From the NCBI GenBank assembly GCA_028281925.1, contig JANQIX010000110.1, positions 46,271 through 70,270 on the forward strand: 24,000 bases of DNA, read 5' to 3'. The position numbers and the translations under genes are program-made. This document shows, in pieces, positions 8,044 through 24,000 of the stretch (the stretch's first letter is position 1; every line of letters begins with the position of its first letter). Source of the DNA: Alphaproteobacteria bacterium (lineage in GTDB: Bacteria; Pseudomonadota; Alphaproteobacteria; DSM-16000; Inquilinaceae). The notes beneath the pieces were generated by a model, which searched no databases, was not told where the DNA came from, and saw only the letters and a list, made by a program, of their open reading frames with translations.

Positions 8044-8134
8044 GGAGGGGTGGCCGAGCGGTTGAAGGCGCACGCCTGGAAAGTGTGTATACGTTAATCG
8101 CGTATCGTGGGTTCGAATCCCATCCCCTCCGCCA
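8044..8134 (+). tRNA. tRNA-Ser (anticodon GGA), class II with long variable arm, CCA encoded
   Basis: Acceptor stem GGAGGGG/CCCCTCC, discriminator G and encoded CCA (8132-8134). Anticodon stem CACGC/GTGTG with loop CTGGAAA, giving anticodon GGA. Long variable arm ATACG-TTAATCG-CGTAT. T arm GTGGG-TTCGAAT-CCCAT. Confidence 0.93.
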
Positions 8135-8712
8135 CTATGCCACGGTTTCTCTGGCGTTTTTGACTGTTCGCACATCTATCCCATACATTTTCCCTACACA
8201 TTGGACCGGGATTGAACTTGCATGCATGCCACATGCGACCACCTAGAGGTCGGTGTTCTATTAATGAGTGATTGCGCACTTCTTTAAGCTTGCACCCTTG
8301 CCAGTTTGAATCCTTAGGCTTAGCGCCACTCGATCGTGCGCAAAGTGCGCGGGGAGTAGCAGAAAGTCTAATATGTGCATATGCACTACAAAACGGCTTC
8401 CCTAGCGATTTTCACTGTGCCCCAATTACCCAAAATGAGTGACCATTCACTTTTCTGTCCTCCAATAGGCAGGTCAGTGACCGGTGAAGCCCAGCTTTGC
8501 GATCGCGAGATCCAGTGCCCCTATCTCACGGCATGGCCCAGCCAAATCGAGGTCAGCCCCACTATCTTGATTAGACGAAAACAAGAATGACAGCGCAGTT
8601 AGGCCTCGAAGCATACTATGGATGCTTGACGACGCCCAAGAAGCAGGTTGCAGTCAATCCCATCGACTGGTACCAAATCAACACGCGGTCAACAGAATTA
8701 CAGTGATGTGAT

Positions 8713-10113
8713 ATGCGCCGTCTGATCCTTCCCGCTCTGCTCTCATCGGCAGTTGCAATACCGCTTCCGAACACAGCGTGGGCGACGAGTGCGGACGAGA
8801 TCAGACGCCTCGAACAGCAGTTGCTGGAGCAGCGCGAGTTGCTCGAAGCCCAAAGGGCAGTTATTGAGGCCCAACAGGAGCAGCTTGATAGCCAGTTGCG
8901 CCAGCTGCAAGACCTGCAGACCAGCCTCTCAGCTGAGCCTCTGTCGGACGACGAGCTCGGCGAGGCTCGCGGCGGAGTGGGCCAGATGGTCTCGGCTCCG
9001 CTCATCTTGAGTTTTCCGTCGCTGGATGGTCAGAGTTTCCAGCCGTCGACGATCACGGCCAGCGTCTTCCCGGCTGCGTTCCCGGAGACCGTGACGGCCG
9101 ACCAGCTGCTGAGCCAGCAGACACCAGGGCAAGCACCGACGACGGAACCAGGCGGCCAAGGCACACCTCCTGGGGACGTCGACTCGGAAGACACCCCGCC
9201 AAGCGTGGAGCTGTTCCCCGAACGCGGCGGCGCACTTCTGCCACAGGGAACTTTAGTGTTTGAGCCTTCTGTTGAATACAACCTTTCGAATGTTAACCGA
9301 GTCGAGGTCGCGGGCTTCAGTGTCCTGCCTGCGATTCTTGTCGGTGAGTTCGCGGTGGAGTCGGTGGAGCGCGAAAACATTACCCCCGCCGTCTCTCTGC
9401 GCTACGGCATCACTGACCGTCTGGATGCCCAGGTTCGTATCCCCTACGTGTTTCGCAGCGAAGACTCCAGCCGACGACCAATTGGCGTCGGCGCTGATGA
9501 GGCCGAGCAGTTCAACACCACCGGCAACGGGCTCGGCGATATTGAGTTCGCGACCAACTATCAGATCAATCGAGGATTGGACGATTGGCCCTTCTTCATT
9601 GCCAATCTTCGCGTGCGCGTGCCAACCGGGCGGGACCCGTTCGAGATTGAGCGGGACGAAGACGGAAATGAATTGGAGCTCGCAACCGGCACAGGGTTTT
9701 TTGGTATACAGCCGAGCTTCACGGTGCTCTATCCGAATGATCCGGCCGTGTTATTCGCGAACCTCGGTTACACCTGGAACTTGGAGCGGGATGTCGGCGA
9801 CGAGTTCGGAGTCATCGATCCCGGCGATATTGTCAACCTCAGCGGTGGCGTCGGCATCGGGCTGAACGAACGCACATCCATTACCCTTGGCTATGATCAC
9901 CAGGTCGTGGGACGCACGAGCCAGGATGGCCAGATCGTCGATGGATCGCGGGTCCTCAACATCGGGCGGCTTCTGTTCGGCGCCTCGTTTCGCGTTTCTG
10001 ACAGTGTCGGCGTCAATCTGACGGTCGCCCCCGGCGTGACTGAAGACGCGCCCGACCTGACCGCGACCTTGCGCGTGCCGATCACCTTCCAAGATCTTTT
10101 CGGAAGCGATTAG
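8713..10113 (+). CDS. Outer-membrane beta-barrel protein with an N-terminal coiled coil (FapF-like architecture)
   Basis: 466 aa. Signal peptide MRRLILPALLSSAVAIPLPNTAWA|TS. Heptad-like coiled coil at about aa 27-72 (EIRRLEQQLLEQRELLEAQRAVIEAQQEQLDSQLRQLQDLQ). LSDDELGEARGG at aa 77-88. A P/T/Q/G-rich linker runs to about aa 175, followed by ~290 aa of alternating-polarity beta-strand sequence (e.g. VSLRYGITDRLDAQVRIPYVF, GLGDIEFATNYQI, FFIANLRVRVPTG, SITLGYDHQV, LTATLRVPITF). Confidence 0.8.
   Translation: MRRLILPALLSSAVAIPLPNTAWATSADEIRRLEQQLLEQRELLEAQRAVIEAQQEQLDSQLRQLQDLQTSLSAEPLSDDELGEARGGVGQMVSAPLILSFPSLDGQSFQPSTITASVFPAAFPETVTADQLLSQQTPGQAPTTEPGGQGTPPGDVDSEDTPPSVELFPERGGALLPQGTLVFEPSVEYNLSNVNRVEVAGFSVLPAILVGEFAVESVERENITPAVSLRYGITDRLDAQVRIPYVFRSEDSSRRPIGVGADEAEQFNTTGNGLGDIEFATNYQINRGLDDWPFFIANLRVRVPTGRDPFEIERDEDGNELELATGTGFFGIQPSFTVLYPNDPAVLFANLGYTWNLERDVGDEFGVIDPGDIVNLSGGVGIGLNERTSITLGYDHQVVGRTSQDGQIVDGSRVLNIGRLLFGASFRVSDSVGVNLTVAPGVTEDAPDLTATLRVPITFQDLFGSD
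8941..8976 (+). other. Double-glycine (C39-type) processing motif LSDDELGEARGG inside the barrel protein
   Basis: The codons CTG TCG GAC GAC GAG CTC GGC GAG GCT CGC GGC GGA were read directly. The block fits LSxxELxxIxGG at positions -12, -11, -8, -7, -2 and -1. Confidence 0.55.
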
Positions 10114-10401
10114 GCATCAACCACGCAACCGCGGGTGATCGATTGTTCTTTTGGGGGACTAGAGGCGCATCCTCAGGCTACAGGCAACCGATGTGCCTAC
10201 AAGCCTTGAACACGTCAGATGGATTAGGCCAGGTTTGATTAAGCCAGGGACCGATCAAGCCGCTGGGAAGCGAACGATACTTCCGCTCCGGCTGGCACCA
10301 CATTCCTTCAGGCGCATGCCTGTTTAGGCCGAACGACTTCGCACCACGACTTCGCACCGTGCTGACAACTCGGCGATTCCCTCCCAACGTGAACCTGCTC
10401 T

Positions 10402-10926
10402 TCAGCGGTCCCTGACTCTGGGCAGGGACAGAACCTCAGTGGTGTCGGCTGTCGTCGATGCGGATCGCGCGGGCCTCTCCGCCAAGACGACTCGGTGATT
10501 ACCATCGCGCCAGTGGTCATCGAAGCCACTCGCCGGGGACATTGCCTCGAGTGCCGTGATCGGCGCGCCGAGTGGCAACACGGCATGCTCCGGGATCACC
10601 TCTCTGCCGGAGGCTGTCGCCACCGCCACTCCCTGATATCCGGCCGCCGCGCCTGACCCGGCAGCGGTTGCAATGACGGCATCGTCCTCATTTTCGATGC
10701 AGATATCACCCCAAGTCACCGCCCGCCACATCGCGCAGTCTTCATCGGCGACGGCGGAGAGCGCGTGGTCCATGATCATCTTGTCTGTGGCGACCAGCAC
10801 GGCCCCATCGATCGCATAGCCGGCAACAATCATGGGCAATGGCAGGGCACAGGCTGTGAGGGCCGCCGCCCCGAAGACAGCGGTGGCGGCAGGCAGATAG
10901 GGTCGTCTCTTCACTTGGGCCTCCAT
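10402..10926 (-). CDS. Hypothetical lipoprotein (last gene of the repeat-protein operon)
   Basis: Part of ORF 10402..11004; the start is taken at ATG 10926 (MEAQVKRRPYLPAATAVFGAAALTAC|ALPLP). A lipobox-like L-T-A-C follows a hydrophobic h-region. No family recognised. Same strand as the 182-aa gene, 67 bp downstream of it. Confidence 0.55.
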   Translation of the reverse strand: MEAQVKRRPYLPAATAVFGAAALTACALPLPMIVAGYAIDGAVLVATDKMIMDHALSAVADEDCAMWRAVTWGDICIENEDDAVIATAAGSGAAAGYQGVAVATASGREVIPEHAVLPLGAPITALEAMSPASGFDDHWRDGNHRVVLAERPARSASTTADTTEVLSLPRVRDR

Positions 10927-10993
10927 GTTCCTGGAGGTCCGACGATGCTCTGCCGGCCTCCAGTTTGTTATCGTGATGCCATGTGAGTTGCCA

Positions 10994-11542
10994 TCACAGG
11001 CCAAGTAAGCCGGCTTCGATCAGTGCGTTGGCGAGGTTGTTTGCTTGGATGCTCGACATGTCGAGATCGAGCGTCAACTCGATGCCGGTGTTCTGCTGTA
11101 TGATGATGTTGTCGAGATTGTTTTGGATAACGGAGAACAAGCCGGACCCGGCGATATCGCCAAGCATGTTGCTGTCGGGGGTGCCCCCCTGCAGGCTGAC
11201 GATGATGCTGCTGTTGGTTTGCTCGATTGCGGTGGTCACCTGACTGCCGAGGACATTGTTCACCTCCGGATCCCCGACCAGCACCCCATTCTCCAGAACC
11301 GCCTGGAAAGTGAAGCTGCTGAGCTCGCTGCCGTCCGCGCCGGCAACCAACCCGGTCATGTCGATCCCGAAGCTCACGAAACCGGCGCTGGTCAGGAAGC
11401 CACCGCGCAGATCCGCCAGCTCTTCGTTCGAGAGCCGCCGCTGCGACCACAAATCGTCTTCGGCCATCGCCGGAGCCAGCTCTGCCAGCAACGGCGTTGC
11501 CATGACCCAGAGCGCTAACGCCAAAGTGCTTTTGCCACGCAT
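10994..11542 (-). CDS. Secreted accessory protein with a GG-leader motif and degenerate IQNN-type repeats
   Basis: ORF 10994..11551 starts on a GTG. The ATG at 11542 has GGGAGG 10 nt upstream. Signal peptide MRGKSTLALALWVMATPLLAELAPAMA|ED, then LSNEELADLRGG. The C-terminal half has AIEQTNSSIIVSLQGG and FSVIQNNLDNIIIQQNT (nt 11087-11137). Confidence 0.7.
   Translation of the reverse strand: MRGKSTLALALWVMATPLLAELAPAMAEDDLWSQRRLSNEELADLRGGFLTSAGFVSFGIDMTGLVAGADGSELSSFTFQAVLENGVLVGDPEVNNVLGSQVTTAIEQTNSSIIVSLQGGTPDSNMLGDIAGSGLFSVIQNNLDNIIIQQNTGIELTLDLDMSSIQANNLANALIEAGLLGL
11399..11434 (-). other. Double-glycine processing motif LSNEELADLRGG
   Basis: The reverse complement reads CTC TCG AAC GAA GAG CTG GCG GAT CTG CGC GGT GGC. 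This fits the LSxxELxxIxGG consensus, including Leu at -4. Confidence 0.55.
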
Positions 11543-11560
11543 GGCTTCCACGCCTCCCGG

Positions 11561-12283
11561 TTAGAATGTGAATTCGTTCAATCCCGGCATCAGCAGCGTT
11601 ATGTCCGACAGGTTCTGTACGGTCAGCGCCGAGCCCAGCGGGGCCAGAGCGCGAATGCGCCAATCTGCTGCCACGTTGAACCGCTGCTGCCCGCTCTCCA
11701 TTGCATTCGTCACGACGAAGAGGATGCCGTTCCACATTGCCTCAAACTGATCTCTTGGGATGATCTTCATGCCGAAGGCCGGATCACCCACCAGGACCTC
11801 GTTTTCGGTCACGCCCTTGATCACCACAAAGTGCAAGTAGCCGTTCAGGTTTATCAGCGTGACCCCGGGGATGCCAACTTCGACCAACTGATCCAGCGAC
11901 GCCTCGAACCCATCGGACTCGAGCCCGATCGTTGCAAGGTAGGTCTTCATGTCGAGCATGGAAAAGCCGCGGGTCCGGATGGCTTCCTGATCGCCGTTCT
12001 CCCACATGTGCTCGAACACGGCCTGCTCGGTCGTCGGAACGCCGTAATGGTAGGTGAGCAAGGTTGCGACCGAGGCCGAGCCGCAGCTGAAGTCGTACTG
12101 CTGCGGCACGACGGCGTTGTACCGCGCCTCTCGGATACTGGTGACCGTCGTGTTGAACGAGAAACCGCCGACGATCGTGGTGACGTCGGCGGCGGTCGCC
12201 TTGTGCGGTCCGGCCGCCGCGGCAACGAGGGCGACGGCGGCCAGCCTGCACAGCCCCAGCCTTGTCTTTGACAGTGTGATCAT
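11561..12283 (-). CDS. Stand-alone C39-family cysteine peptidase with a Sec signal peptide (predicted periplasmic, FapD-like)
   Basis: 240 aa. Signal peptide MITLSKTRLGLCRLAAVALVAAAAGPHKATA|AD. C39 signature VVPQQYDFSCGSASVATLLTYHYG has Gln 6 residues before Cys67 (codon 12083-12085). LHFVVIKGVTENEVLVGDPAFG contains His151 and Asp167, 16 residues apart. Its ATG overlaps the TGA of the upstream 115-aa gene (ATGA). Confidence 0.88.
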   Translation of the reverse strand: MITLSKTRLGLCRLAAVALVAAAAGPHKATAADVTTIVGGFSFNTTVTSIREARYNAVVPQQYDFSCGSASVATLLTYHYGVPTTEQAVFEHMWENGDQEAIRTRGFSMLDMKTYLATIGLESDGFEASLDQLVEVGIPGVTLINLNGYLHFVVIKGVTENEVLVGDPAFGMKIIPRDQFEAMWNGILFVVTNAMESGQQRFNVAADWRIRALAPLGSALTVQNLSDITLLMPGLNEFTF

Positions 12284-12627
12284 TGCACGATAACGCTCAG
12301 CATTGTGTTCACCTGGATGATCGAGTTGTTGCCGTTGTTCTGGATCACCGTGAACGCGCCGGCCGCATTCTGAAACGCATCTGCGGCGATGGAATTGCTG
12401 GCATTGAACGGGCCCGTGATGTTTGAGGTCACGTTGCTGATCTCCGCCGACAGTGCGGCAAAGTCGGCATCGAGACCTTGCAGCGAGCCGCCGCGTGCCT
12501 CCGCCAGTTCTTCCGTAGAGATCGGGTTCCCGCCAAGAAGCCGGCTGACCTCTTCTTGGGCCTTAGCCGTATGTCCCGTGCCTGCGATGGCTAACGCCGC
12601 GACACAGAGAATTATACCCTTGGTCAT
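12280..12627 (-). CDS. Small secreted protein: signal peptide + GG-leader motif + a single QNNG-family repeat (candidate nucleator/cap)
   Basis: Part of ORF 12280..12648. The ATG at 12627 is preferred, with GGGAGG 5 nt upstream (complement of 12633-12638). Signal peptide MTKGIILCVAALAIAGTGHTAKA|QE, then ISTEELAEARGG. The mature ~68 aa end in DAFQNAAGAFTVIQNNGNNSIIQVNTMLSVIVQ. Confidence 0.75.
   Translation of the reverse strand: MTKGIILCVAALAIAGTGHTAKAQEEVSRLLGGNPISTEELAEARGGSLQGLDADFAALSAEISNVTSNITGPFNASNSIAADAFQNAAGAFTVIQNNGNNSIIQVNTMLSVIVQ
12487..12522 (-). other. Double-glycine processing motif ISTEELAEARGG
   Basis: Codons were checked one by one on the reverse strand (ATC TCT ACG GAA GAA CTG GCG GAG GCA CGC GGC GGC). 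Confidence 0.55.
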
Positions 12628-12668
12628 CAAAGCCTCCCGAAACAGCATACTTAACCGAAGAGCGTGAA

Positions 12669-12696
12669 CCGGGGGTCGCTGTCACTCGACCCCCGG
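12669..12696 (-). terminator. GC-rich 10-bp-stem hairpin between the giant gene and the downstream accessory genes (possible attenuator or mRNA-stabilising stem-loop)
   Basis: CCGGGGGTCG (12669-12678), loop CTGTCACT, CGACCCCCGG (12687-12696). It lies 37 nt downstream of the giant gene's TAA (12733-12735). On the minus-strand transcript no clean U-tract follows (TTCACGCTCTTCGG), so it is not a canonical intrinsic terminator. Confidence 0.35.
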
Positions 12697-12732
12697 CCCC
12701 GTTTTGGCTCCCTACAGAGCCTCCCGTTACTC

Positions 12733-15700
12733 TTACGGCCGCGTGAAGCTTGCCGTAACCGAGATGGACGAGCTGATCACGTTGCCCGAACCGTTGTTCT
12801 GGGTGACCGACACAACCCCAGCCGCTCCGTTGAACGAGTCGGTGATCGTGTTGTTGAGCCCAGTGGAGCCGGCCGGGATGACCGTATCGACCGTGACGTT
12901 GGAGGTCGCACCGGCCAGTGTCGCGGTCGACACCGCAGTGCCAAACCCGACGTCACCGCTCGGCGCACCGCCAGAGCCCACCTGCTCCGCACCGACGCTG
13001 ACCGCCGTTCCCAGCACATTGGCATCGCCGTTGTTCTGGGTCACGGTCGCCACGCCCTGGAAGCTCTCGAACGAGTCGCTGATCGTGTTGTCGGGGCCGA
13101 CAGCACCCAGCTGCTGATAGATCTCGATCGGAGCCCCAGGCGCCCCAACGGTACCGGTCACGTCAGACGAAACCGTGCTGGAACCTGCCACGTCCGCGTT
13201 GTCACCCAGCGTGGCCGATACGCCGATGGCCGTTGTCGCCACATTGCCGTTCCCGTTGTTCTGGAACACGGCGAAGATCCCCTCGGCACCATCGAACGAG
13301 GCGTCGATGAAGTTCGACCGATTGCCGAAGAACTGCCGGTCACCCGGCGCACCGAACACCAGACCGCTCACATCGCCGCCGGCCTCGACCACCGAGGCGA
13401 CCGTGTCGATATCGTCTGCATCGACCAGGGCCACCACGCCAATCGAAGTGCCGATGACGTTGCCGGTACCGTTGTTCTGCTGAACCGAGACCACACCGCT
13501 CGCGCCGTCGAAGGAGTCGGCGACGATGTCGTTGTCTCGGAGGTTGCTCTCCAAGATCGCGCCATCGTCAACCTCGCTGACCGTGCCGAAGGCGCGGATC
13601 AACGATTGCGTGGAGCTCTCTGCGGCAGGAGTGGCGCCAGCCTGGCCCGTGCGAACGTCGGCCGACACGGCGATGGCGGAGAACATGGCGTTACCGTCGC
13701 CATTGTTCTGCTGGACCGTCAGCGTGCCGGTATACGAGTCGAACGAGTCAGTGATCGTATTCAACCGCGGGCTTTCCGTATCGACGAAGGTGATGATGTC
13801 TTCGATGTCCACGGACATGTCGACCGACTGGGTGACGTTGTTCGCGGTCGCACCGGGCCCGCTGCCGAACACCGCGGTACCGGAGAAGATGAAGTTTCCG
13901 CCACCGTTGTTCTGCTGAGCCGTGACGATGCCCGAAGCGTCGTCGAACGCCCCACCGACGAGGAGGTTGGTACGAGCCCCGTCCGGCGTGGCGGCGGACC
14001 CGAACGTGAGCCCCGACAGCGTCGGCGGGACACCGTCCAGGCTGATCGTCTGATCAACCGTCAACGTCTCTTCGTCGTCCGCATCGCCGACCAACGCCGT
14101 TGCCGCCGCCAGAACGTTGCCGTCACCATTGTTCTGCTGAATGGTGGCGACACCTGAGTACCCGACGAATGCCGAGGTCAGGTCGTTCAGACGCAGGCTG
14201 TTGTCGGAGAGCACCGTGAGATCGCTGACCTGGTTCGTACCGGACGCGGCATCGATCGTCTGGTCGACGTTCTCCGGGCCGTTACCCACATAGGCCAGCA
14301 CCGCCACGTCTTCGATCATCACGTTGGCGTCGCCGTTGTTCTGCTGAACATCGACCACACCCGCGAAGCCGTCAAACGCGCCCGGTTCGACCCTATTGGT
14401 GCGCACGTCATCGGCTGCCGACACGAGCGCGAACGAGACCACTGTTTCAACGAATGTGATCTCTTGGGCCGCGTCACTGAGGAACCCGGTCGATCCCACA
14501 ATGGCGTTGTTGGCCGTCATCACGTTCACATCGCCGTTGTTCTGCTGAACCGTGGCAATGCCGCCGGTGCCCGGGCCCGTGAAGGCGCCGCCACCGATGG
14601 TGTTCGTCCGCGTTCCGCCAGCGCTGATCAGGTTCAGATCGAAGGTCAGGTTCCCGGCGACCGTTCCGGCCGACCCGATGGTCTGGGTCACCGTGCCAGT
14701 CGGGCCGAGCAGCAGGCCATCAGCCGACCCCAGCACCGCATTGTTGATCTGCATGGCGTTGAGGTTGCCGTTGTTCTGCTGAACATTGGCGATCCCCGCC
14801 GAGCCGGAGAAGGCCGTGCCGCCCACCAGGTTGGTGCGTGTCTCACCGCTAATCAGGATGTCGATATCGGCATCCAGCGTCGCGATGATATCCGCATCCG
14901 ACGTGATCGTCTGATCGACCGGCAGCCCCGCCGCCTGCAGCAGGACACCACCAGCCAAGCCGACCACGGCGCTGTTCGCCCCAATCGCGTTCAGGTTGCC
15001 GTTGTTCTGCTGAACCGTGGCAATCCCGTTCGAGCCGGAGAAGGCACCGCCGTCGATCGTGTTGGTCGCAACCTCTGTTCCCAGCGTCAGGAACTCGAGA
15101 TCCACTGTCGCATCCAACAGGTGCAGCGTGTCGGACGACACGACCTGATCGACTTCACCGACCGCACTGAGGGCGAACCCGGCCGCGCCGAGCACCGCGG
15201 TGTTGGCGGTGATCGAGTTCAGGTCACCATTGTTCTGCTGAACCGTGGCGACGCCGTCCGAGCCCGAGAACGCGCTGCCAGTGATCGTGTTGGTATCCGT
15301 ATCACCGAGCAGCAAGGAGATATCGATCCCCGCCTCGAACACGTGGGCAGCGCTGGAGCTCACGCTCTGATCCACGCTTCCCGCGCCGATGGCGGCAAGA
15401 CCTGACACACCGACGATCGCATTGTTGATCGTCATGGCATTGATGTTGCCGTTGTTCTGCTGAGCATTCACGACACCGGCGGACCCTGCGAAGGCCATGC
15501 TGTCGATCAGGTTCTCCCGATCGCCGCCGGACAAGATGTTGATGTCGAACGCCGCGTTGAGCGCCAGCAAGTCGGCCGAGGTGATGCTCTGGACCACCGT
15601 TCCCGTCGCGTTGAACGAAAGCCCAACTGCACCGACAACCGCGTTGTTGATGGCGAGTGCATTGATGTCGCCGTTGTTCTGCTGAACGCTGGTCAGACCC

Positions 15701-18700
15701 GCTGCACCTTCAAACGCTTCGTCGCTGATCAGGTTGTCGCGGCTGCTGTCCGCGATGCCCAGATCGATGGCCAAGTCGAGTGCCAGTGTGGCTTCCGACG
15801 TGACCGTCTGCGTGATGCTATCGGTCAGCCTGAAGTCGAAGCCACCGACCCCGATGATCGCATTGTTGATACCGAGACCGTTCACGTTGCCGTTGTTCTG
15901 CTGAACGCTGGTCACGCCTTCGACACCCTCGAACGCGTCGTCGGTGATCGTGTTGGCACGCGCACCAAGGACATTGAGGTCGGCATCGAGAGCCAGGTTG
16001 AAGATGATGTCGGTGCTGGAGCCGGCCACCTGCGTGACGTCGCCGAACGGCCCCAGTTGGGCTCCGCCGGCCACGCCGACGACCGCACTGTTGATGTCCA
16101 GCGCGTTCACGTCGCCGTTGTTCTGCTGCACGCTGGTCATGCCGGAGATGCCGTTGAACGACCCCGCGTCGATCGTATTCGTGCGGAAGCCGAGGATGTC
16201 GATCGCACCGTTGGCGGTGAGGTCGACTTCCGACATGGCCGTCTGGGTCACATCCGCGCCGATCGCCAGCGCCCCGTCGGTCAGGCCGACCACGGCGTTG
16301 TTGATGCCGAGCGAATTGACGTTGCCATTGTTCTGCTGCGCGGCGATCAGGCCCGACGTCGCGAGGAACGCCGCATCCGTGATCGAATTCGTCCGTGCGC
16401 CGCCCAGGACGTCAGCATCTACCACGAAGCTGCCATCGATGCTGACGGTCGACGTGGCCTCTTGATCCACGAAACCGACTGCACTGAGCGAGAACCCGGC
16501 CACACCCACGACGGCGTTGTTGATGCCCATCGCATTGATGTCGCCGTTATTCTGCTGGGCGCTGACGATGCCGCTCGCGAAGGCGAACGCCCCCGCATCG
16601 ATATCGTTGTCCCGCACGCCGCCGAAGAACAGGGTGACATCTGCGGCCGTGTTGTCCAGCAGGCTGACATCAGACGTGGCGTCCTGGAACACGAAGCCGG
16701 TCGCGCTGAGCGCGATGCCTGTGGTCCCGGAAACCGCATTGTTGATGCTGAGCGCATTCACATCGCCGTTGTTCTGTTGAACGCTCAGCAGACCGGCTGC
16801 AGCGACGTTGGCGATGTCGCTGATGTCGTTGGTGCGCGCACCACCACCGAAGATGCCCAGATCGATGGCCGTGTTGCTGTCCAGCTCTACGAGCGAGCTG
16901 GCCGACTGGACGATAGCGAAGGTCGCGCTCGCCGACAGCCCAACCGTTCCCATCACTGCGTTGTTGATGTTCAGCGCATTGATGTTGCCGTTGTTCTGCT
17001 GGGCATTGATGACGCCAGCCGCCGTCGCGAAGGCAGCGCCATCGATCGTGTTGTCCCGGTCACCGCCGCCCAGGGCGCTGACGTCAAGCGCGCCACCCAG
17101 GGTCAGGTCCGTGTCGGAACTCGCCGTCTGGAACGCCACGCCAGTCAGGCTGGCAGAGGCGCCGACACCGCCGATCACCGCATTGTTGGCGCTGATGGCA
17201 TTCAGGTCGCCATTGTTCTGCTGAACATTGACAACTCCAGCGAAGCCAGCGAAGGCGCCGTCCGTCAGTGTGTTCGTGCGGTCACCGCCAAACACGCTGC
17301 CGTCCACGGCCAGCGTGAAGACAGTGTCAACTGACGAGGTGGCGTCCTGATCCACAAGGCCATTGGCCGTGAGGGTCAGGCCGTTGGCGCCGACGACCGC
17401 ATTGTTAACGTCCATCGAGTTCAGGTTGCCGTTGTTCTGCTGAACGCTGGCGATCCCGCTGCCGCCTGCGAAGGCAGCGTCGTCGATGGTGTTGGTCCGC
17501 GTACCCTGGATGTCGATCGCAGCCGCGATGGCGTTGACGACAGTCGAGGATGCATCTTGCGTGATGAAGCCGAGCTGAGCCAGAGCGCCGGCCGACACGC
17601 CAACCACCGCATTGTTGGTGCTGATGGCATTCAGGTCGCCGTTGTTCTGCTGAACGTTGACGATGCCGTTTGCGCCGGTGAAGGCAAGGTCGGTGAGGGT
17701 ATTCGTCCGATCACCGCCCAGGATCTCCAGATCCACCGCCACGTTGAAGGCGAGCCCGCTGTCTGAGTCGGCAGTCTGGATCACCGGACCACTGGCGCTG
17801 GCGCCGAAGCCCGCAACGCCAACGACGGCACTGTTCACGCCCATGACGTTCACGTTGCCGTTGTTCTGCTGGACAGTGGTGATCCCGTTGGCCACCAGGA
17901 AGGCGCCAGCGTTGACCACGTTCGCGCGATCACCACCCCCGATCTGCACATCCAATGCTGCATCGAACAGCAAGAAGGCATCCGATTCGGCCACCTGCGT
18001 AACGATGCCCGTTCCCGTCAGGCCGAGGCCCGCTGTTCCGAACACCGCTGTGTTGGCAGAGATCGAGTTCAGATCGCCGTTGTTCTGCTGAACATTGACG
18101 ATGCCGTCCGACGCGATCGAGGCGATGCCCGTGATCGTGTTCAGGCGATCGCCACCACCCAGCAGCCCGACATCGATTGCCGTGTCGCCCAGGAGCGTTG
18201 CCGTGGAGGTCGCCGACTGATCCAACGTCCCGGAGAGGCTTACGCCGGCGCCGGACGCACCGACGATGGCGTTGTTGATGCCCATGGCGTTCAGGTCGCC
18301 GTTGTTCTGCTGAACGTTGACGACACCATCCACCAGCGCAAAGGCAGCACCACCGACTACGTTGCTGCGTGCGCTGCCGCCGAGGAAGTCGAAGTCGACG
18401 GTCGTGCTGAGAGCGATATCCTGATCCGAGCCGGCGGTCTGCGTCGTCGCCCCAGCAGCACTGATCGAGATACCCACGGCACCCATAACCGCGTTATTGA
18501 TGCCGAGTGCGTTCAGGTCGCCGTTGTTCTGCTGAACGTTGGCGATACCGTCGAAGACCGAGAACGCTGTACCGGTGATCACATTGTCTCGGCCACCGCC
18601 GCCTAGGAGATCCAGGTTCAGCGTCGCACCCAGGGCCAGATCGACATCGGAAGTCGCGCTCTGGTCGACGGTCGAATTCAGGCCCAGGTTGATCCCGATC

Positions 18701-21700
18701 GCGCCGACCACGGCGGAGTTGGCGTCGATCGAGTTCAGATCACCGTTGTTCTGCTGCACGCTTGCGAGGCCGGCTGCTCCGGAGAAGGCCGATCCGCTGA
18801 TGGAATTGTCGCGGGCGCCGAACCCAAGAGCATCGACATCGATCCCCGCATTCAAAGCGGCATCGACGGTCGAGCTAGCGGACTGATCGATAGCGCCGAG
18901 CACAGCCACGTTGATACCGCCGCTGGAGCCAACGACGGCATTGTTGATGTCCATGCTGTTGAGGCTGCCGTTGTTCTGCTGGATAGCCGCGATGCCGTTG
19001 GCACCGGCAAACGCCGCACCGTCGATCGTGTTCTCCCGATCGCCGCCCAGATCGATAGCCAAGTTGATCAGGAAGTCGACGTCGGAAGCCGCCACCTGGC
19101 TTATGCCACCGATCGCACCCGTGAGGCTTGGCGCCGTGGCCCCGAGCACCGCGTTGTTGATCTGCAGCGCATTCAGGTCGCCGTTGTTCTGCTGGATGTT
19201 CGCGATACCTGCGGCGCCGGTGAAGGCACCCGTGATCGTGTTGCTGCGGTCACTCAGCAGGTCAAGCGTCGCGTTGACGGTCAAGAGAGCGGTCGAAGTG
19301 GCCGACTGCACGACCGGCACACCTGACAGCACGATGGCCGGGCCGATCGAGCCCACCACGCCGTTGTTGGTCTCAAGCGTGTTCAGCGTGCCGTTGTTCT
19401 GCTCGATATTGGCGATGCCCGTGGCACCAGCGAACCCACCGGGAATCGTGTTGGTGCGCGAACCGAACAGATCGGCCGTGGCGCCGAAGGCCACGATCGC
19501 CGGGCTGTTCACATCCTGCGTGACGCTGGTCGCGACACCAAGCGCACCGACCACGGCGTTGTTGATCTGCAGCGAGTTGAGGTCACCATTGTTCTGCTGA
19601 ACGTTGATGATCCCGCTCGCGCCATCAAACGCACCGGCGGCGATCGTGTTCGTCCGCGTCGTGGCAATGCCGATCTCCAGATTGCCAGCCAGCGTCGTCA
19701 GCTCAATCGTCGAACTCGGGGTCTGCGTGATCGCACCGGTCGCACCGGTCACGCCCACCACCGCGCTGTTGATGTCCATCGCATTCAGGCTGCCATTGTT
19801 CTGTTGAACGCTGGCCACGCCCGTGAAGCCGTCGAAGACGGGATCGGCGATGAAGTTGTCGCGGGTACCCGCGATGTCGACGGCCAAGTTGCCCAGGATC
19901 GACACGGTCGTGCCGACGTCCTGATCGATGGCACCGGTGGAGCTAGCCACACCGACGATCGCAGTGCCGATTGAGACAATGTTGGCGTCACCGTTGTTCT
20001 GCTGGACGTTCGCCACGCCCGCGGCCCCATTGAAGCCGTCTTCCAGCAGGTTGGACCGGACGTCGCTCGGGTCGACCGCGACCGAGCTCAGGATATCCGC
20101 CGTCTTGACGATGTCCTGATCGATGGCGCCAGTCGCGCCGACGATGCCGACAATGGCATTGCCGATGACGATGGCATTACCGCTGCCATTGTTCTGCTGA
20201 ACGTTGAGAACGCCGGTCGCACCGTTGAAGGACCCACCGGCCAGGCCGATGTTGTTGTCCAGCGTGGAGGAACCGACGCGGATCACCTCAACATCGTCGA
20301 CTTCGGCATCCAGCGTGACGGCCTGCGTGATGCTGCCGGAACCGCCGAGGCCCGCGCCGAGAGCGGCCGCATCGCCGGCGATCGCGCTGGCGACCTGGAT
20401 GGCATTCGCATGGCCGTTGTTCTGCTGAACGGTGACCACGCCGGCGGCATCGGTGAACGCTTGGTCGATGTCGTTGCTGCGGTCGGCGCCGCTGCCCGAA
20501 ACATCGATGTCGACGATGAAGCCATCGAGCGTGGCGAAGGCATTCGTGGTCTGCGAGATCGCCCCGCCCACTGACGCCGTCGCACCGATGACCGCATTGG
20601 CCACGTCCATCGCGTTGGCGTGACCGTTGTTCTGCTGCACGGTCAGAACACCCGACGCGTCGCGGAACGACCGTTCGATCAGGTTGATTGCCGTCGGGAA
20701 GCCGATATCGTCAACATCGGTGCTGCCCAGAACGGTGGAGAAACTGCCAGCCGTCTGATCGATAGACCCGATCGTGCCGCCAGGTGACGCCAGCCCCAGA
20801 ACCGCATTGGCGTTGGAGATGGCATTGCCATCGCCGTTGTTCTGCTGGGCCGTAAGGACACCGCTGAAGCGGTCAGCGGAGTTGATGGTCAGGTTCCGAT
20901 AGTCGGTTGCATTGGAATCCGCGCTGGTCAGGAGGATCGTCGAAGCCGACGTCGCGTCCTGTGTGACCGCGCCGTCCACGCCGCCGGTGATACCCGCAAT
21001 GGCGTTGGCGATCCCCATCGCATTGCCATCGCCGTTATTCTGCTGGACAGCCGCGAGACCGACTGCGTCGTCGAACGCCCGGCGGATCACATTGTTTCGA
21101 TCCAGCGCAAACGCAAAGCTGCCGGGCTGCGTGTTGGTCGTGTTCAGGGCTATGGTGCCGCCGGTCAGGGCCGACTGCGTAACGGCGTCCGTGTCTTCCG
21201 GCGAACCCAGAAGGACGGCCGTCCCGCCGACGAGACCGGTAACTGCATTGGCAATGCCCATGGCGTTGCCGCTGCCGTTGTTCTGCTGAACCGCCATGAT
21301 GCCGGCGGTGGAATCGAAGGAGTCGCGGATCCTGTTCCGGCGATCGGTACCTTGATCAACCGTGTCAACGAGGACCGAAAGGCCGACGGTCGAAGCGGTG
21401 TTGGTGATGGCGCCGACATCCGCGATGGCTGCAACGATGCCGTGCGCTGCCGTTGCAACGCCCATCGCATTGATGTCGCCATTGTTCTGCTGCACATGGA
21501 TGATGCCGGCAGCGCCATTGTAGGAGCTGTCTTGGACGAAGTTCTGCCGCTCCCGCGTGGCGTCGGAGCCGTCGCCGATTGCGGTCGCACTGCCAAAGGC
21601 GACGATATCGGTGACCGCAGCCACGGTCTCGATGTCAGCGCCGTCGGGTGCCAGGTCGCCATTCACCGCGATGGCGCTACCGAGCACGTTCCCGTCGCCA

Positions 21701-21924
21701 TTGTTCTGCTGGCTGACCAGGACACCTTCCGCACCCAGCGTGAACGAATTGAGGATCGTGTTGAGCTCACCGCCCGATCCGCCCGCAGACTGATCATCCA
21801 CGACGACACCGGAGGCGGAAGACGCCGTGACAGAGGCACTCGCCAAACTCTGCGCCTGTGCAGCGGCGCCGAAGCCGATCGTCAGAGCCAGGAGGGACAC
21901 GCCCCCTAAAAGAGTATTCCTCAT
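12733..21924 (-). CDS. Giant (3,063 aa) Sec-exported repeat protein with 42 QNNG-core repeats; candidate fibre/adhesin or functional-amyloid-like subunit
   Basis: One uninterrupted 9.2-kb ORF. ATG at 21922-21924 with GGGAGAGG upstream. Signal peptide [24 protein letters not shown]|QS. I counted 42 occurrences of the core x(V/I/A)(Q/T/E/F)QNNGxxN, each inside a ~65-77-aa unit such as (D/T)R(T/D)N(T/x)Ixxx(A)Fxg(A/x)xG(I/V)xxVQQNNG(D/N)xNAxxINNAVVGxxG...(T/D)Q...D. The composition is dominated by A/G/N/V/S/T/D/I/L/Q, and I saw no Cys or Trp on reading. The protein ends right after a repeat (...GVVSVTQNNGSGNVISSSISVTASFTRP). Confidence 0.9.
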   Translation of the reverse strand: MRNTLLGGVSLLALTIGFGAAAQAQSLASASVTASSASGVVVDDQSAGGSGGELNTILNSFTLGAEGVLVSQQNNGDGNVLGSAIAVNGDLAPDGADIETVAAVTDIVAFGSATAIGDGSDATRERQNFVQDSSYNGAAGIIHVQQNNGDINAMGVATAAHGIVAAIADVGAITNTASTVGLSVLVDTVDQGTDRRNRIRDSFDSTAGIMAVQQNNGSGNAMGIANAVTGLVGGTAVLLGSPEDTDAVTQSALTGGTIALNTTNTQPGSFAFALDRNNVIRRAFDDAVGLAAVQQNNGDGNAMGIANAIAGITGGVDGAVTQDATSASTILLTSADSNATDYRNLTINSADRFSGVLTAQQNNGDGNAISNANAVLGLASPGGTIGSIDQTAGSFSTVLGSTDVDDIGFPTAINLIERSFRDASGVLTVQQNNGHANAMDVANAVIGATASVGGAISQTTNAFATLDGFIVDIDVSGSGADRSNDIDQAFTDAAGVVTVQQNNGHANAIQVASAIAGDAAALGAGLGGSGSITQAVTLDAEVDDVEVIRVGSSTLDNNIGLAGGSFNGATGVLNVQQNNGSGNAIVIGNAIVGIVGATGAIDQDIVKTADILSSVAVDPSDVRSNLLEDGFNGAAGVANVQQNNGDANIVSIGTAIVGVASSTGAIDQDVGTTVSILGNLAVDIAGTRDNFIADPVFDGFTGVASVQQNNGSLNAMDINSAVVGVTGATGAITQTPSSTIELTTLAGNLEIGIATTRTNTIAAGAFDGASGIINVQQNNGDLNSLQINNAVVGALGVATSVTQDVNSPAIVAFGATADLFGSRTNTIPGGFAGATGIANIEQNNGTLNTLETNNGVVGSIGPAIVLSGVPVVQSATSTALLTVNATLDLLSDRSNTITGAFTGAAGIANIQQNNGDLNALQINNAVLGATAPSLTGAIGGISQVAASDVDFLINLAIDLGGDRENTIDGAAFAGANGIAAIQQNNGSLNSMDINNAVVGSSGGINVAVLGAIDQSASSTVDAALNAGIDVDALGFGARDNSISGSAFSGAAGLASVQQNNGDLNSIDANSAVVGAIGINLGLNSTVDQSATSDVDLALGATLNLDLLGGGGRDNVITGTAFSVFDGIANVQQNNGDLNALGINNAVMGAVGISISAAGATTQTAGSDQDIALSTTVDFDFLGGSARSNVVGGAAFALVDGVVNVQQNNGDLNAMGINNAIVGASGAGVSLSGTLDQSATSTATLLGDTAIDVGLLGGGDRLNTITGIASIASDGIVNVQQNNGDLNSISANTAVFGTAGLGLTGTGIVTQVAESDAFLLFDAALDVQIGGGDRANVVNAGAFLVANGITTVQQNNGNVNVMGVNSAVVGVAGFGASASGPVIQTADSDSGLAFNVAVDLEILGGDRTNTLTDLAFTGANGIVNVQQNNGDLNAISTNNAVVGVSAGALAQLGFITQDASSTVVNAIAAAIDIQGTRTNTIDDAAFAGGSGIASVQQNNGNLNSMDVNNAVVGANGLTLTANGLVDQDATSSVDTVFTLAVDGSVFGGDRTNTLTDGAFAGFAGVVNVQQNNGDLNAISANNAVIGGVGASASLTGVAFQTASSDTDLTLGGALDVSALGGGDRDNTIDGAAFATAAGVINAQQNNGNINALNINNAVMGTVGLSASATFAIVQSASSLVELDSNTAIDLGIFGGGARTNDISDIANVAAAGLLSVQQNNGDVNALSINNAVSGTTGIALSATGFVFQDATSDVSLLDNTAADVTLFFGGVRDNDIDAGAFAFASGIVSAQQNNGDINAMGINNAVVGVAGFSLSAVGFVDQEATSTVSIDGSFVVDADVLGGARTNSITDAAFLATSGLIAAQQNNGNVNSLGINNAVVGLTDGALAIGADVTQTAMSEVDLTANGAIDILGFRTNTIDAGSFNGISGMTSVQQNNGDVNALDINSAVVGVAGGAQLGPFGDVTQVAGSSTDIIFNLALDADLNVLGARANTITDDAFEGVEGVTSVQQNNGNVNGLGINNAIIGVGGFDFRLTDSITQTVTSEATLALDLAIDLGIADSSRDNLISDEAFEGAAGLTSVQQNNGDINALAINNAVVGAVGLSFNATGTVVQSITSADLLALNAAFDINILSGGDRENLIDSMAFAGSAGVVNAQQNNGNINAMTINNAIVGVSGLAAIGAGSVDQSVSSSAAHVFEAGIDISLLLGDTDTNTITGSAFSGSDGVATVQQNNGDLNSITANTAVLGAAGFALSAVGEVDQVVSSDTLHLLDATVDLEFLTLGTEVATNTIDGGAFSGSNGIATVQQNNGNLNAIGANSAVVGLAGGVLLQAAGLPVDQTITSDADIIATLDADIDILISGETRTNLVGGTAFSGSAGIANVQQNNGNLNAMQINNAVLGSADGLLLGPTGTVTQTIGSAGTVAGNLTFDLNLISAGGTRTNTIGGGAFTGPGTGGIATVQQNNGDVNVMTANNAIVGSTGFLSDAAQEITFVETVVSFALVSAADDVRTNRVEPGAFDGFAGVVDVQQNNGDANVMIEDVAVLAYVGNGPENVDQTIDAASGTNQVSDLTVLSDNSLRLNDLTSAFVGYSGVATIQQNNGDGNVLAAATALVGDADDEETLTVDQTISLDGVPPTLSGLTFGSAATPDGARTNLLVGGAFDDASGIVTAQQNNGGGNFIFSGTAVFGSGPGATANNVTQSVDMSVDIEDIITFVDTESPRLNTITDSFDSYTGTLTVQQNNGDGNAMFSAIAVSADVRTGQAGATPAAESSTQSLIRAFGTVSEVDDGAILESNLRDNDIVADSFDGASGVVSVQQNNGTGNVIGTSIGVVALVDADDIDTVASVVEAGGDVSGLVFGAPGDRQFFGNRSNFIDASFDGAEGIFAVFQNNGNGNVATTAIGVSATLGDNADVAGSSTVSSDVTGTVGAPGAPIEIYQQLGAVGPDNTISDSFESFQGVATVTQNNGDANVLGTAVSVGAEQVGSGGAPSGDVGFGTAVSTATLAGATSNVTVDTVIPAGSTGLNNTITDSFNGAAGVVSVTQNNGSGNVISSSISVTASFTRP
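12775..21715 (-). repeat. Array of 42 diverged tandem coding repeats, period about 195-240 bp
   Basis: On the + strand the 12-mer (G/A)TTGTTCTGCTG (the reverse complement of Q-Q-N-N codons) recurs at, for example, 13471, 13702, 13906, 14128, 14335, 14536, 14770, 15001 ... 21276, 21481 and ~21701. The flanking sequence is diverged, so these are imperfect repeats rather than recent identical copies. Confidence 0.9.
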
Positions 21925-22161
21925 TTAGCCTCTCCCGTTTCGCGTTGGCCGTCTGCCGACGGGGTTTACACTTCGGTTTCCGCTCGATCTGAGCGCGCTC
22001 ACCCCTGAATCGCTCGGAAACCGGGGCCGCACCGGCGGCCCCCTTCGGGCATCCCGATGCACTTGCGCTCTGAACTAGCAAGTCGCATGCCAGAACGGGC
22101 TACACGCTTTAGGAGATTGATATTGTTGGGAAATTGCGCTCAAGAACCGAGGAGATCGGCC

Positions 22162-22178
22162 GTTAACTCTTTGTTAAC
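22162..22178. promoter_or_regulatory. CtrA-type box 1 (GTTAACTCTTTGTTAAC = TTAA-N7-TTAAC, matching on both strands)
   Basis: Read directly: TTAA + CTCTTTG + TTAAC. Lies 238-254 bp upstream of the giant gene's ATG, in a locally AT-rich intergenic region. Confidence 0.5.
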
Positions 22179-22257
22179 CTGTTCACATTTGCGAGGACAG
22201 CGAATCGATCGGCTGGCTCGGTGAGCGGAAAACCAAGGGATTCCAACGGGGCAATTA

Positions 22258-22274
22258 GTTAACAAAGTGTTAAC
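22258..22274. promoter_or_regulatory. CtrA-type box 2 (GTTAACAAAGTGTTAAC)
   Basis: TTAA + CAAAGTG + TTAAC, also matching on the opposite strand. Forms a 16/17-nt inverted repeat with box 3, separated by 13 bp. Confidence 0.5.
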
Positions 22275-22287
22275 GGCACCGGTAGGC

Positions 22288-22304
22288 GTTAACACTTTGT
22301 TAAT
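22288..22304. promoter_or_regulatory. CtrA-type box 3 (GTTAACACTTTGTTAAT; perfect TTAA-N7-TTAAC on the minus strand)
   Basis: The reverse complement is ATTAACAAAGTGTTAAC, i.e. TTAA + CAAAGTG + TTAAC. Confidence 0.5.
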
Positions 22305-22511
22305 AAGTAGGAGTCCTATCTAAGTGCCGAGTCTAAATGCCGAGAGGAGCAATCGCGCCTGCCCGGGCAGACCGCATGGCAGGAGAGGATCTCGCCTTGC
22401 ATATCGAGGAGATTCAGAAATCCGTTGATCGGCTTGTCGGCTGATGGCACCCACCGATCGCCGGCAACTGAAGGGCGCCGCCTGTGCCGACGACGCCCTT
22501 CGTGGTCTTCC

Positions 22512-23117
22512 TCAGCTTTGCGGAACCAGCAAGGCGACCAAGGTTGTCAGATCGGGCAACCCGGTTGCCTCGAGCTCGTTCTGCTCTTGAAATTCCGAAA
22601 TGGCGGCTTGCGTTCCCGGGCCGAACACGCCGTCAGCCTCGCCGTCATAGAGCTCAAGCTCGGCCAGTCTCTCTTGGGCGCGGCGCAACAGCTCAACGGG
22701 CAGGCTTACGCTCTCTTCTCCGGAAACGACGTCCACTCGCTCGGACTGTTCGGCCAGCGCCAATGGACGAAGCAGCGAAGCCGTGGCGGTCACGGCCTCG
22801 CCAAAGCGCGCCTGGGGCGTTCGATCGCAGATATTGGCGACTATGGCCGTCAGGGCGTCGATGTTGTGCACGGGGCTGATGTCGTAGACGCCCTCCGTCA
22901 GCAGGTTCACCGCCGAGAAGTGGCCATTAATCCAAGACCGGAACGCCAGCACCAAGGGATCGCTGTCCTCCAGCGCCTGCGTGAAGGTCTCGCAAGTCTC
23001 AAACCCCTCTCCCTTGATGACGTAGTTTCCGTCTGTGTCCGCGGCTTCGACGGTAGGTACAGAGATCGCCGCAGTGCCGAGGAGAGCGGCCAACAGAGCT
23101 GAGCCGTAGTGACGCAT
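22512..23117 (-). CDS. Secreted protein with a C-terminal peptidoglycan-binding (PG_binding_1-like) domain
   Basis: Part of ORF 22512..23441. The start is taken at ATG 23117 (MRHYGSALLAALLGTAAISVPTVEA|AD), preceded by a perfect AAGGAGG (complement of 23123-23129). The C-terminus, RAQERLAELELYDGEADGVFGPGTQAAISEFQEQNELEATGLPDLTTLVALL, matches the LxxLGxYxGxxDGxFGxxTxxAVxxFQ pattern. The N-domain is unassigned. Confidence 0.72.
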   Translation of the reverse strand: MRHYGSALLAALLGTAAISVPTVEAADTDGNYVIKGEGFETCETFTQALEDSDPLVLAFRSWINGHFSAVNLLTEGVYDISPVHNIDALTAIVANICDRTPQARFGEAVTATASLLRPLALAEQSERVDVVSGEESVSLPVELLRRAQERLAELELYDGEADGVFGPGTQAAISEFQEQNELEATGLPDLTTLVALLVPQS

Positions 23118-24000
23118 GACAGCCTCCTTAGATGTCACAAGGTTGTATTGTTCAACGATGCGTCGCGCGCCCTCACCATCGGCACGCCTGCGGCGGGAGC
23201 AATTGCCACTATCCCTGCAAATTCGCAATCTCTCATTGTCGGCAACAAAGTTTCGCGTACTTGTCGTGGACGACGTTGACTGGGACGCTTGCCGTAAGAT
23301 CGCCTTCAGATTGACCGTCGCTCCGGTCGGCTCCTCCGCCGGGCCACCCCAGGCACATTGTCGTTGGGTCGCGAGCGTTGGGGGGTCGGACGGAGGAGCG
23401 GGTTGGAGCCGCCTCCACCACAGGTGACGACGCTCTAGCACCTAACGCTGGATCAATTGAGGGATGCGAGCGCGTCAGAGTTGTCAAGCCTCAAGCCTGC
23501 TCCCTCGCAACGCGCAAGGCGAACAAGATGCCGACGATAGCTGACGCTCTGAGGGTCAACCAAGTAAGCGACCGTACTGCATGTAAATCGGAGCCGCCTG
23601 CGGCTAAGTAGATGCGCCTTGCGGAAAAGCTCGAGAAGCCGTGCTAGCAGCATGTCCATTATCGCCATAACTCGTTGAATTCCTGTGTATGCGTTGTCCG
23701 ATTTTCCCTTTATGATTTTACATATGGCGCGTCATGTTTACGATTTTAACGAATTCTTCTGCAAGCAATTGGCTGCATCCCAGCGTGTGCGCAAGATTTT
23801 CATTGAATCTGACGAAAGCTTGTGCATAATCAGAGGTAATGCTGGGGTCTTAAGGTGCCCAGCTCGTTCGGAGAAACCGGGCTAAGAAAGGGTTAGGGAC
23901 GGGTCACCGCCACATCGGCGCTAATTCAAAACATCCCAAAAAAAATCTACTACCCAGGCTGAACCATGCTCCACGGACTGATTGTGGAGAGGGCGTAGCG

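Follow-up and report, generated by a model that had tools for sequence, protein, structure and literature searches.

Three CtrA-type boxes upstream of a giant Fap-like fibre gene as the probable enhancer of a sigma-54 promoter

Which protein would read the three repeated boxes that stand ahead of a giant fibre gene in an uncultured alphaproteobacterium? The gene, for a protein of 3063 aa, lies in a stretch of 24,000 nt from contig JANQIX010000110.1 (assembly GCA_028281925.1); the whole stretch is referred to below as the window. Each box contains an exact TTAA-N7-TTAAC, the consensus of the regulator CtrA, and the original prediction took CtrA control as its primary reading, with a stem-loop in a 5' leader or binding by a different dimeric regulator as fallbacks. 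The evidence assembled here points to another answer. At a rough probability of 0.72, the boxes are the upstream activating sequences (UAS), that is, the enhancer, of a sigma-54 promoter for the giant Fap-like gene, and would be bound by a BrfA-like bacterial enhancer-binding protein (bEBP) encoded at the same locus. That their sequence fits the CtrA motif is probably fortuitous. Thus, the fallback of a different dimeric regulator is now favoured: the boxes are non-random, repeated elements of a protein-binding type in the control region of the fibre gene.

Three boxes in the control region of the giant gene

The gene and the boxes are arranged as follows.

12733-21924, minus strand: giant FapC-like fibre gene encoding 3063 aa, including a signal peptide and 38 repeats of the QQNNG type (period about 73 aa)
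22159-22178, minus strand: box 1, putative promoter-proximal UAS element, reading GTTAACAAAGAGTTAACGGC on the minus strand; centre at about -104 from the predicted transcription start
22258-22277, plus strand: box 2, putative UAS element, reading GTTAACAAAGTGTTAACGGC on the plus strand; centre at about -200
22285-22304, minus strand: box 3, putative UAS element, reading ATTAACAAAGTGTTAACGCC on the minus strand; centre at about -230

The 17-bp cores of the boxes (GTTAACTCTTTGTTAAC, 22162-22178; GTTAACAAAGTGTTAAC, 22258-22274; GTTAACACTTTGTTAAT, 22288-22304) have the sequences and positions that were first reported and lie 238-380 bp upstream of the ATG of the giant gene (21924). Boxes 1 and 2 match the CtrA motif on both strands, as had been claimed, and box 3 carries the full motif on the minus strand only, which makes five strand matches in total. 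In the window, these five are all the matches to TTAA-N7-TTAAC over both strands (0.04 expected; none of 100 shuffles reaches five). TTAA-N7-TTAA occurs three times in 24 kb, where 0.00 are expected, and all three occurrences are the boxes; five of the seven GTTAAC hexamers of the window (0.91 expected) also fall within them. The statement that no other such site is present could be extended: no copy of GTTAAC-N5-GTTAAC beyond the three boxes was found, even at two mismatches, in the window or in L001, a Logan contig of 12.7 kb that carries the identical locus, overlaps the window and runs 7.2 kb past its end. A blastn search of a plasmid collection with the intergenic region gave no match, and an Rfam search of the whole window returned one tRNA only and left the intergenic region empty.

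Read in a single orientation, the three boxes have RTTAAC-AAAGW-GTTAAC-GSC in common, and therefore the 'N7' spacer is conserved as well; the conserved unit is oriented and longer than 17 nt. Boxes 1 and 2 have a 20-nt arm in common (95%), and each box is in itself nearly palindromic (GTTAACA-N3-TGTTAAC). A distance of 30 bp, about three helical turns, separates boxes 2 and 3. The inverted repeat that had been described for this pair exists, with dimensions other than those given at the time (16/17 complementary positions and a 13-nt spacer): the arms, 22259-22275 and 22287-22303, are 17 nt long, 100% complementary and separated by 11 nt.

A sigma-54 promoter-like site between the boxes and the gene

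A site of the -24/-12 type stands between the boxes and the giant gene, on the strand of the gene and 168 bp upstream of its ATG.

22092-22077, minus strand: sigma-54 (-24/-12) promoter-like site TGGCATgcgacTTGCT, one mismatch to TGGCAC-N5-TTGCW; predicted start at about 22066
21925-22066, minus strand: predicted 5' leader of about 142 nt, the length following from the position of the promoter
22110-22122, minus strand: possible IHF-like (integration host factor) bend site TATCAATCTCCTA, one mismatch to WATCAANNNNTTR

TGGCATgcgacTTGCT is the sole sigma-54 site of this kind in the non-coding DNA of the window, and it has the invariant GG and GC. Its position would place the boxes at about -104, -200 and -230 from the predicted start, in enhancer (UAS) territory; measured from the -24 element, the dyad-symmetric boxes (n = 3) are at -86, -182 and -211. 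The IHF-like site, found by eye between box 1 and the promoter, is a tentative assignment that might mark a bend. No sigma-70-like promoter and no terminator was detected in 21850-22600 by a simple consensus scan, which is indicative only, and the region contains no other strong dyad that could serve as an alternative UAS.

The predicted leader holds an inverted repeat of its own (21974-21988 and 22009-22023; 15 nt, 87% complementary, 20-nt loop). In the homologous genes, leaders of 130-240 nt are typical, and two alphaproteobacterial loci, L010 and L013, have a conserved leader segment in common.

Recurrence of the architecture in homologous loci

We collected 84 FapD-type loci from alpha-, beta-, gamma- and deltaproteobacteria, starting from homologues of the FapC-like protein and from a FapD alignment scan of 185,579 species genomes, in which the best FapD identity was 63%. 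Loci are denoted below by L-numbers. Sigma-54 sites are present 130-240 bp upstream of eight of the 11 alpha-type FapC-like genes (P about 4e-12; the background for sites with up to two mismatches is ~2% per 300 bp), and about 30 loci overall have a sigma-54 site in the non-coding DNA upstream of the operon.

For the sequences upstream of these promoters we made an unbiased count of spaced dyads, covering all combinations of 4-mer, gap and 4-mer, and compared 32 UAS windows (-330 to -30) with 1693 control windows taken from these loci. The top dyad was GTCA-N8-TGAC (8/32 UAS windows versus 3/1693 controls, p = 9e-13), and the next distinct one was GTTA-N7-GTTA (6/32 versus 5/1693, p = 1e-8). 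Both consist of GTNA(A)C-type half-sites at a spacing of 11 bp. The generalised pattern GTNA[AC]-N6-GTNA[AC]?C is found in 15 of the 32 UAS windows and in 11 of the 1693 controls (0.6%; p = 1.5e-21). This pattern was written after inspection of the data, and thus the control on spacing is the fair part of the test: the enrichment is specific to the 11-bp register, with other spacings giving 1-5 of 32. The members are alphaproteobacterial (the window, L008a, L010, L012, L013 and L058), betaproteobacterial (L038 with GTCACAAAAGTGTGAC, L089 with GTCAACGAAACGTGAC, L044, L055, L042, L075 and L076) and deltaproteobacterial (L023 and L027). In the homologous loci the UAS sites cluster at -85 to -140 and at -180 to -245 from the -24 element.

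The half-sites vary in an informative way. Among the alphaproteobacterial control regions, the TTAA of the CtrA motif is conserved in part: TTAAC half-sites are kept in L012, L008a and L004 as in the window, and are replaced by GTAAC in L010 and L013 and by GTGAC in L002 and L045, with L058 mixed. The resulting elements at the same position, TGTAAC-N5-TGTAAC (L010, L013), TGTGAC-N4-GTCACA (L002) and GTGACA-N3-TGTTAC (L045), are poor fits to CtrA. Variation of this kind among alphaproteobacterial loci is expected of a locus-specific regulator and not of the conserved specificity of CtrA. In the betaproteobacterial loci the half-sites (e.g. GTCAAC-N5-GTGAC) are always inverted, GTCAC...GTGAC, and never direct repeats, which suggests a symmetric helix-turn-helix (HTH) dimer rather than a tandem-binding protein of the OmpR/CtrA type.

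As a separate observation, a 16-mer, GTTAACAGATCGATAC, is present in the UAS regions of two alphaproteobacterial loci (L010, ~9598-9613; L016, ~7528-7543).

A sigma-54 activator linked to the Fap-like loci

Contig L001 shows what lies just outside the window.

L001 5544-6617, about 2.3 kb beyond box 3: bEBP gene, 357 aa, with Sigma54_activat (4e-68), AAA lid and Fis-type HTH_8

The protein, which lacks a sensory domain at its N-terminus, keeps a GSFTGA loop (GAFTGA-like) and is therefore expected to act via sigma-54. A homologous bEBP is encoded within 10 kb in 43 of the 84 fetched FapD-type loci, and in 31 of the 48 loci with full 10-kb flanks, often within a few hundred bp of a fapF-like gene and in all four proteobacterial classes. 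Fap-linked bEBPs from beta- and gammaproteobacteria (L038, L025, L089) carry an N-terminal VpsR domain (PF20161), while the alphaproteobacterial ones that were scanned are N-terminally short (L001, L010, L012) or give no VpsR match (L058); the activating signal may thus differ in the alphaproteobacteria.

The HTH regions of the locus-linked bEBPs are very similar to each other (...LG[VI]SR[VM]TLYRL...). Proteins with SRVTLY pair with GT[A/T]AC half-sites (the window, L010, L012, L058 and the deltaproteobacterial L027), and those with SRMTLY pair with GT[C/G]AC, either by the pattern (betaproteobacterial L038, L042, L044, L055, L075, L076 and L089) or by eye (betaproteobacterial L064 and L073, alphaproteobacterial L045). 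Two of these pairings, L045 (assigned by eye) and L027, cross the phylogeny. The residue in the bEBP helix and the centre of the half-site thus appear to covary; the loci are phylogenetically related, and the covariation is therefore suggestive only.

Together these elements suggest the following mechanism. Dimers of the locus-linked bEBP would bind the boxes, which offer dyads with half-sites 11 bp apart at the three distances from the start given above. The bound dimers would oligomerise and loop, possibly with the help of IHF, to the sigma-54 holoenzyme at TGGCATgcgacTTGCT, and ATP hydrolysis would open the promoter, which would drive the giant FapC-like gene and then the downstream fapD-like operon.

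Several points weigh against this interpretation. The promoter-like site reads TGGCAT instead of TGGCAC. The generalised pattern was drawn up after looking at the sequences, with the spacing as the only internal control, and the loci are related, so that neither the counts nor the covariation of HTH and half-site are made of independent events. About half of the bEBP-linked loci lack the generalised motif. Conversely, TTAAC-type boxes occur without a detectable sigma-54 site in alphaproteobacterial L004, L015, L057 and L058. In L004 an exact TTAA-N7-TTAAC (ATTAACGGTTCATTAACCAT, 9781-9797) lies upstream of the FapC-like gene, with neither a sigma-54 site nor a linked bEBP; in L057 (~4521) and L058 (~7210) exact copies lie upstream of fapF-like genes, with no sigma-54 site detectable nearby. 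At such loci either the box-binding protein acts without sigma-54 or the boxes are sites of another protein such as CtrA, and the boxes of L004, L057 and L058 are the foremost candidates either for true CtrA binding or for a locus regulator that works independently of sigma-54.

Alternative explanations

That the boxes are genuine CtrA sites, through which phosphorylated CtrA would tie the fibre locus to the cell cycle or to a cell type, we consider unlikely, even though the sequence match is as good as it can be. The TTAA-N7-TTAAC consensus is well established by chromatin immunoprecipitation sequencing (PMC7200025), and three perfect sites are found where about 0.04 matches are expected. The host is alphaproteobacterial by its lysyl-tRNA synthetase, whose best matches (66-72% identity) are from uncultured Alphaproteobacteria near Rhodospirillales, and CtrA is presumably present in such a host. 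In ~340 kb of alphaproteobacterial loci, nearly all TTAA-N7-TTAAC sites lie in the control regions of Fap loci, while the non-alphaproteobacterial loci have four sites in 1.07 Mb, and L004 carries its TTAA-N7-TTAACCAT with no sigma-54 site or linked bEBP. GANTC, the CcrM site, is 3-fold depleted in the window (40 versus 120 expected, every shuffle being higher) and 7-fold clustered in this intergenic region (six in the 587-bp control region, P = 2.6e-4, clustered at 22007-22415); among 16 other upstream regions the clustering recurs in L013 and L058 only. Against all this, the distance of the boxes from a sigma-54 promoter (about -100 to -230), rather than a place over the -35 region of a sigma-70 promoter, is wrong for classical activation by CtrA, and the simple scan gave no sigma-70-like promoter. 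The conserved 'N7' spacer and the oriented dyad of 17-20 nt are not required of a CtrA site. At equivalent positions in other alphaproteobacteria the TTAA is broken by GTAAC or GTGAC. The same architecture is found in beta- and deltaproteobacteria, from which CtrA is not known. It is the enhancer distances, the variants unfit for CtrA and the linkage to a bEBP in four classes that lead us to set aside CtrA as the primary reading. A combination of both regulators is conceivable and likewise improbable: the Fap enhancer sites may here have taken on the exact CtrA consensus, with the bEBP as the activating ATPase and phosphorylated CtrA competing or cooperating at the same sites, possibly together with CcrM methylation at GANTC. 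If this were true, production of the giant amyloid fibre would be restricted to a single cell type or cell-cycle stage, and the boxes without sigma-54 sites in L004, L057 and L058 would be the CtrA-only version.

The boxes could also bind another dimeric or tandem regulator, acting as a co-activator or repressor, which we hold to be quite unlikely. A candidate of the OmpR type exists: L001 encodes an OmpR-family response regulator about 6 kb beyond box 3, together with a HAMP kinase, the half-site spacing of 11 bp would suit tandem binding of the OmpR/PhoB type too, and a few alphaproteobacterial loci have box-like elements and no sigma-54 sites. This regulator, the only one of its family nearby, reaches 100 bits where the cut-off is 350 and so is not CtrA, and it is a poor candidate for the box binder, as no more than about 4-5 of the 84 loci have the regulator/kinase pair, at 28-36% identity; moreover, the true inverted repeats of the betaproteobacterial half-sites favour a symmetric HTH dimer, and the sigma-54 promoter needs a bEBP site, for which no other candidate is present. 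It is highly improbable that boxes 2 and 3 act as RNA, in a 17-bp hairpin that would serve as a terminator or processing signal of the upstream gene or as a structure in the leader of the giant gene. Their arms are perfectly complementary and fold well (-21.5 kcal/mol, z = -6.6 against shuffles); equally good folding would result from any two inverted copies of a protein site. The pair lies upstream of the predicted start, which makes the stem-loop in a 5' leader that had been proposed unlikely, there is no run of T behind it, and the scan called no terminator. Box 1 is without a partner, and the homologous loci have tandem or single box-like sites rather than pairs that could form a hairpin. 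Least probable of all is a non-regulatory origin of the boxes, either as a chance cluster or as copies of some dispersed repeat. Nothing beyond the repetition itself speaks for it; no further copy at two mismatches exists in ~31 kb (the window and the 7.2 kb of L001), the plasmid collection gave no match, and the motif class recurs at the same position relative to the promoter in unrelated genomes.

The Fap-like locus and other features of the region

Besides the giant gene, the locus contains the following genes.

12280-12648, minus strand: small conserved operon protein (115-122 aa), assigned by synteny
11561-12283, minus strand: FapD-like C39 peptidase of the same operon (Pfam Peptidase_C39, 9e-19; NCBIfam C39_FapD, 7e-47, 159.5 bits against a cut-off of 330)
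8713-10113, plus strand: FapF-like outer-membrane amyloid transporter (FapF structure PDB 5O65, 2.7e-26; NCBIfam FapF, 2e-40, 138.8 bits against a cut-off of 700)
22512-23117, minus strand: peptidoglycan-binding protein, 201 aa, directly upstream of the fibre gene

Two further small proteins are encoded on the same strand after the C39 peptidase. None of the small operon proteins (115-122, ~182 and ~176 aa) has a family match. The FapF-like gene is convergent to the operon, and its product is a beta-barrel protein. Neither the FapD nor the FapF score reaches its NCBIfam equivalog cut-off; this is thus a distant Fap-like functional-amyloid locus, with a FapF homologue that is not an equivalog. 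The FapC-like homologues are 33-38% identical to the giant protein and 550-870 aa long, the giant protein being about four times longer. It has no match in NCBIfam or in the copy of Pfam used, and its N-terminus has no sequence match in PDB. Precomputed matches to PF27129 (FapBC), weak or faint, are present on the homologues and on a relative of 3063 aa from GCA_028285185.1, which falls in the same 90% cluster. This assembly is the only close relative, with proteins in the same 90% clusters; its contig, which begins 145 bp upstream of the giant gene, does not reach the promoter or the boxes.

The peptidoglycan-binding protein has the same position in other alphaproteobacterial loci. PG_binding_1 companions in alpha-type loci (L002, 8916-9551; L012; L015; L016) are 30-42% identical, and their N-terminal domain, which matched no known family, has invariant DGN, two Cys and NG..A motifs. 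A metagenome scan with this protein found no relatives. An ORF of 35 codons between it and the boxes (22338-22445, plus strand) has no family match, nor did inspection by eye reveal a convincing ribosome-binding site. A tandem direct repeat (TCTAAGTGCCGAG / TCTAAATGCCGAG, 22319-22344), directly distal to box 3, could serve another regulator.

A second, weaker sigma-54-like site (TGGCAACGCCGTTGCT, 11487-11502, minus strand, two mismatches) lies within the operon just downstream of the fapD-like gene and is probably due to chance. In L001, relaxed box-like matches are found at 3981 and 6997 (GTTAACTGACAGTGAC, between divergent genes for a 168-aa protein and a TPR protein, and GTGAATTGCCAGTAAC, upstream of the bEBP gene); ~0.3 are expected by chance, and there is no sigma-54 site near.

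A gene for tRNA-Ser(GGA) at 8044-8134 marks a step in GC content, from 0.65-0.68 to 0.55-0.64 (8135-24000). An island inserted beside this tRNA gene may carry the Fap-like locus in its entirety.

Implications

The case illustrates how annotation by motif alone can be misled by a perfect triple match when the context (the class of promoter, an activator gene linked to the locus, the homologous loci) points elsewhere. Should the sigma-54 interpretation of the boxes hold, the recently described control of Fap amyloid by RpoN and BrfA would extend from Pseudomonas to a far broader range of Fap-like loci in four proteobacterial classes, with GTNAC-type half-sites at a spacing of 11 bp as the proposed common layout of the enhancer. 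It would also provide a testable handle on the timing of a 3063-residue amyloid-like fibre in an uncultured alphaproteobacterium. For specialists in sigma-54 and in functional amyloids the gain is incremental.

Comparison with known systems

Like the enhancer of glnAp2 bound by NtrC and the UAS of other bEBPs, the boxes of the window are 17-bp dyads with a 6-N5-6 layout; several are present, a pair of them about three helical turns apart, and they lie ~100-230 bp upstream of a sigma-54 promoter-like site. They differ in the half-site, which is GTTAAC here and TGCACC/GGTGCA for NtrC, and the putative activator lacks a receiver domain.

With CtrA boxes (PMC7200025) the sites have in common an exact sequence match at all three positions and an alphaproteobacterial host. 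Unlike CtrA boxes, they stand at sigma-54 enhancer distance, form a dyad with a conserved spacer and have counterparts in homologous loci in which the TTAA is broken. The bEBP-like regulators of the VpsR/FleQ type, which respond to cyclic di-GMP (c-di-GMP), resemble the proposed system in controlling biofilm-matrix genes, and the VpsR N-terminal domain is present in the Fap-linked bEBPs of beta- and gammaproteobacteria; the bEBP linked to the window has no VpsR domain and keeps the GAFTGA-like GSFTGA loop.

The closest known counterpart is the fapA-E operon of Pseudomonas fluorescens PF07, which has a -24/-12 promoter mapped by 5'-RACE and is down-regulated when rpoN or brfA is deleted; brfA, which adjoins fapF, codes for a regulator of the Fis type that depends on RpoN (PMC9207406, Guo et al. 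2022). BrfA is reported to be a bEBP that senses c-di-GMP and regulates fapA directly (Guo 2024, Microbiol Res 287:127864, as cited in PMC13101488 and in bioRxiv 10.64898/2026.01.27.702051). The window resembles this system in its FapD and FapF homologues and its putative FapB/C-like subunit, in the -24/-12 promoter-like site before the first fibre gene and in the linked Fis-type bEBP. It differs in that the host is alphaproteobacterial, the subunit has 3063 aa with its 38 QQNNG-type repeats, and FapD and FapF score below the equivalog cut-offs of NCBIfam. The bEBP, of 357 aa, is without the VpsR-type domain of its beta- and gammaproteobacterial homologues, and its gene is located upstream of the operon, past the peptidoglycan-binding gene, and not beside fapF. 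The type of control proposed here is thus already known; the novelty lies in the alphaproteobacterial host, in how large the fibre gene is and in the proposed site architecture common to several classes.

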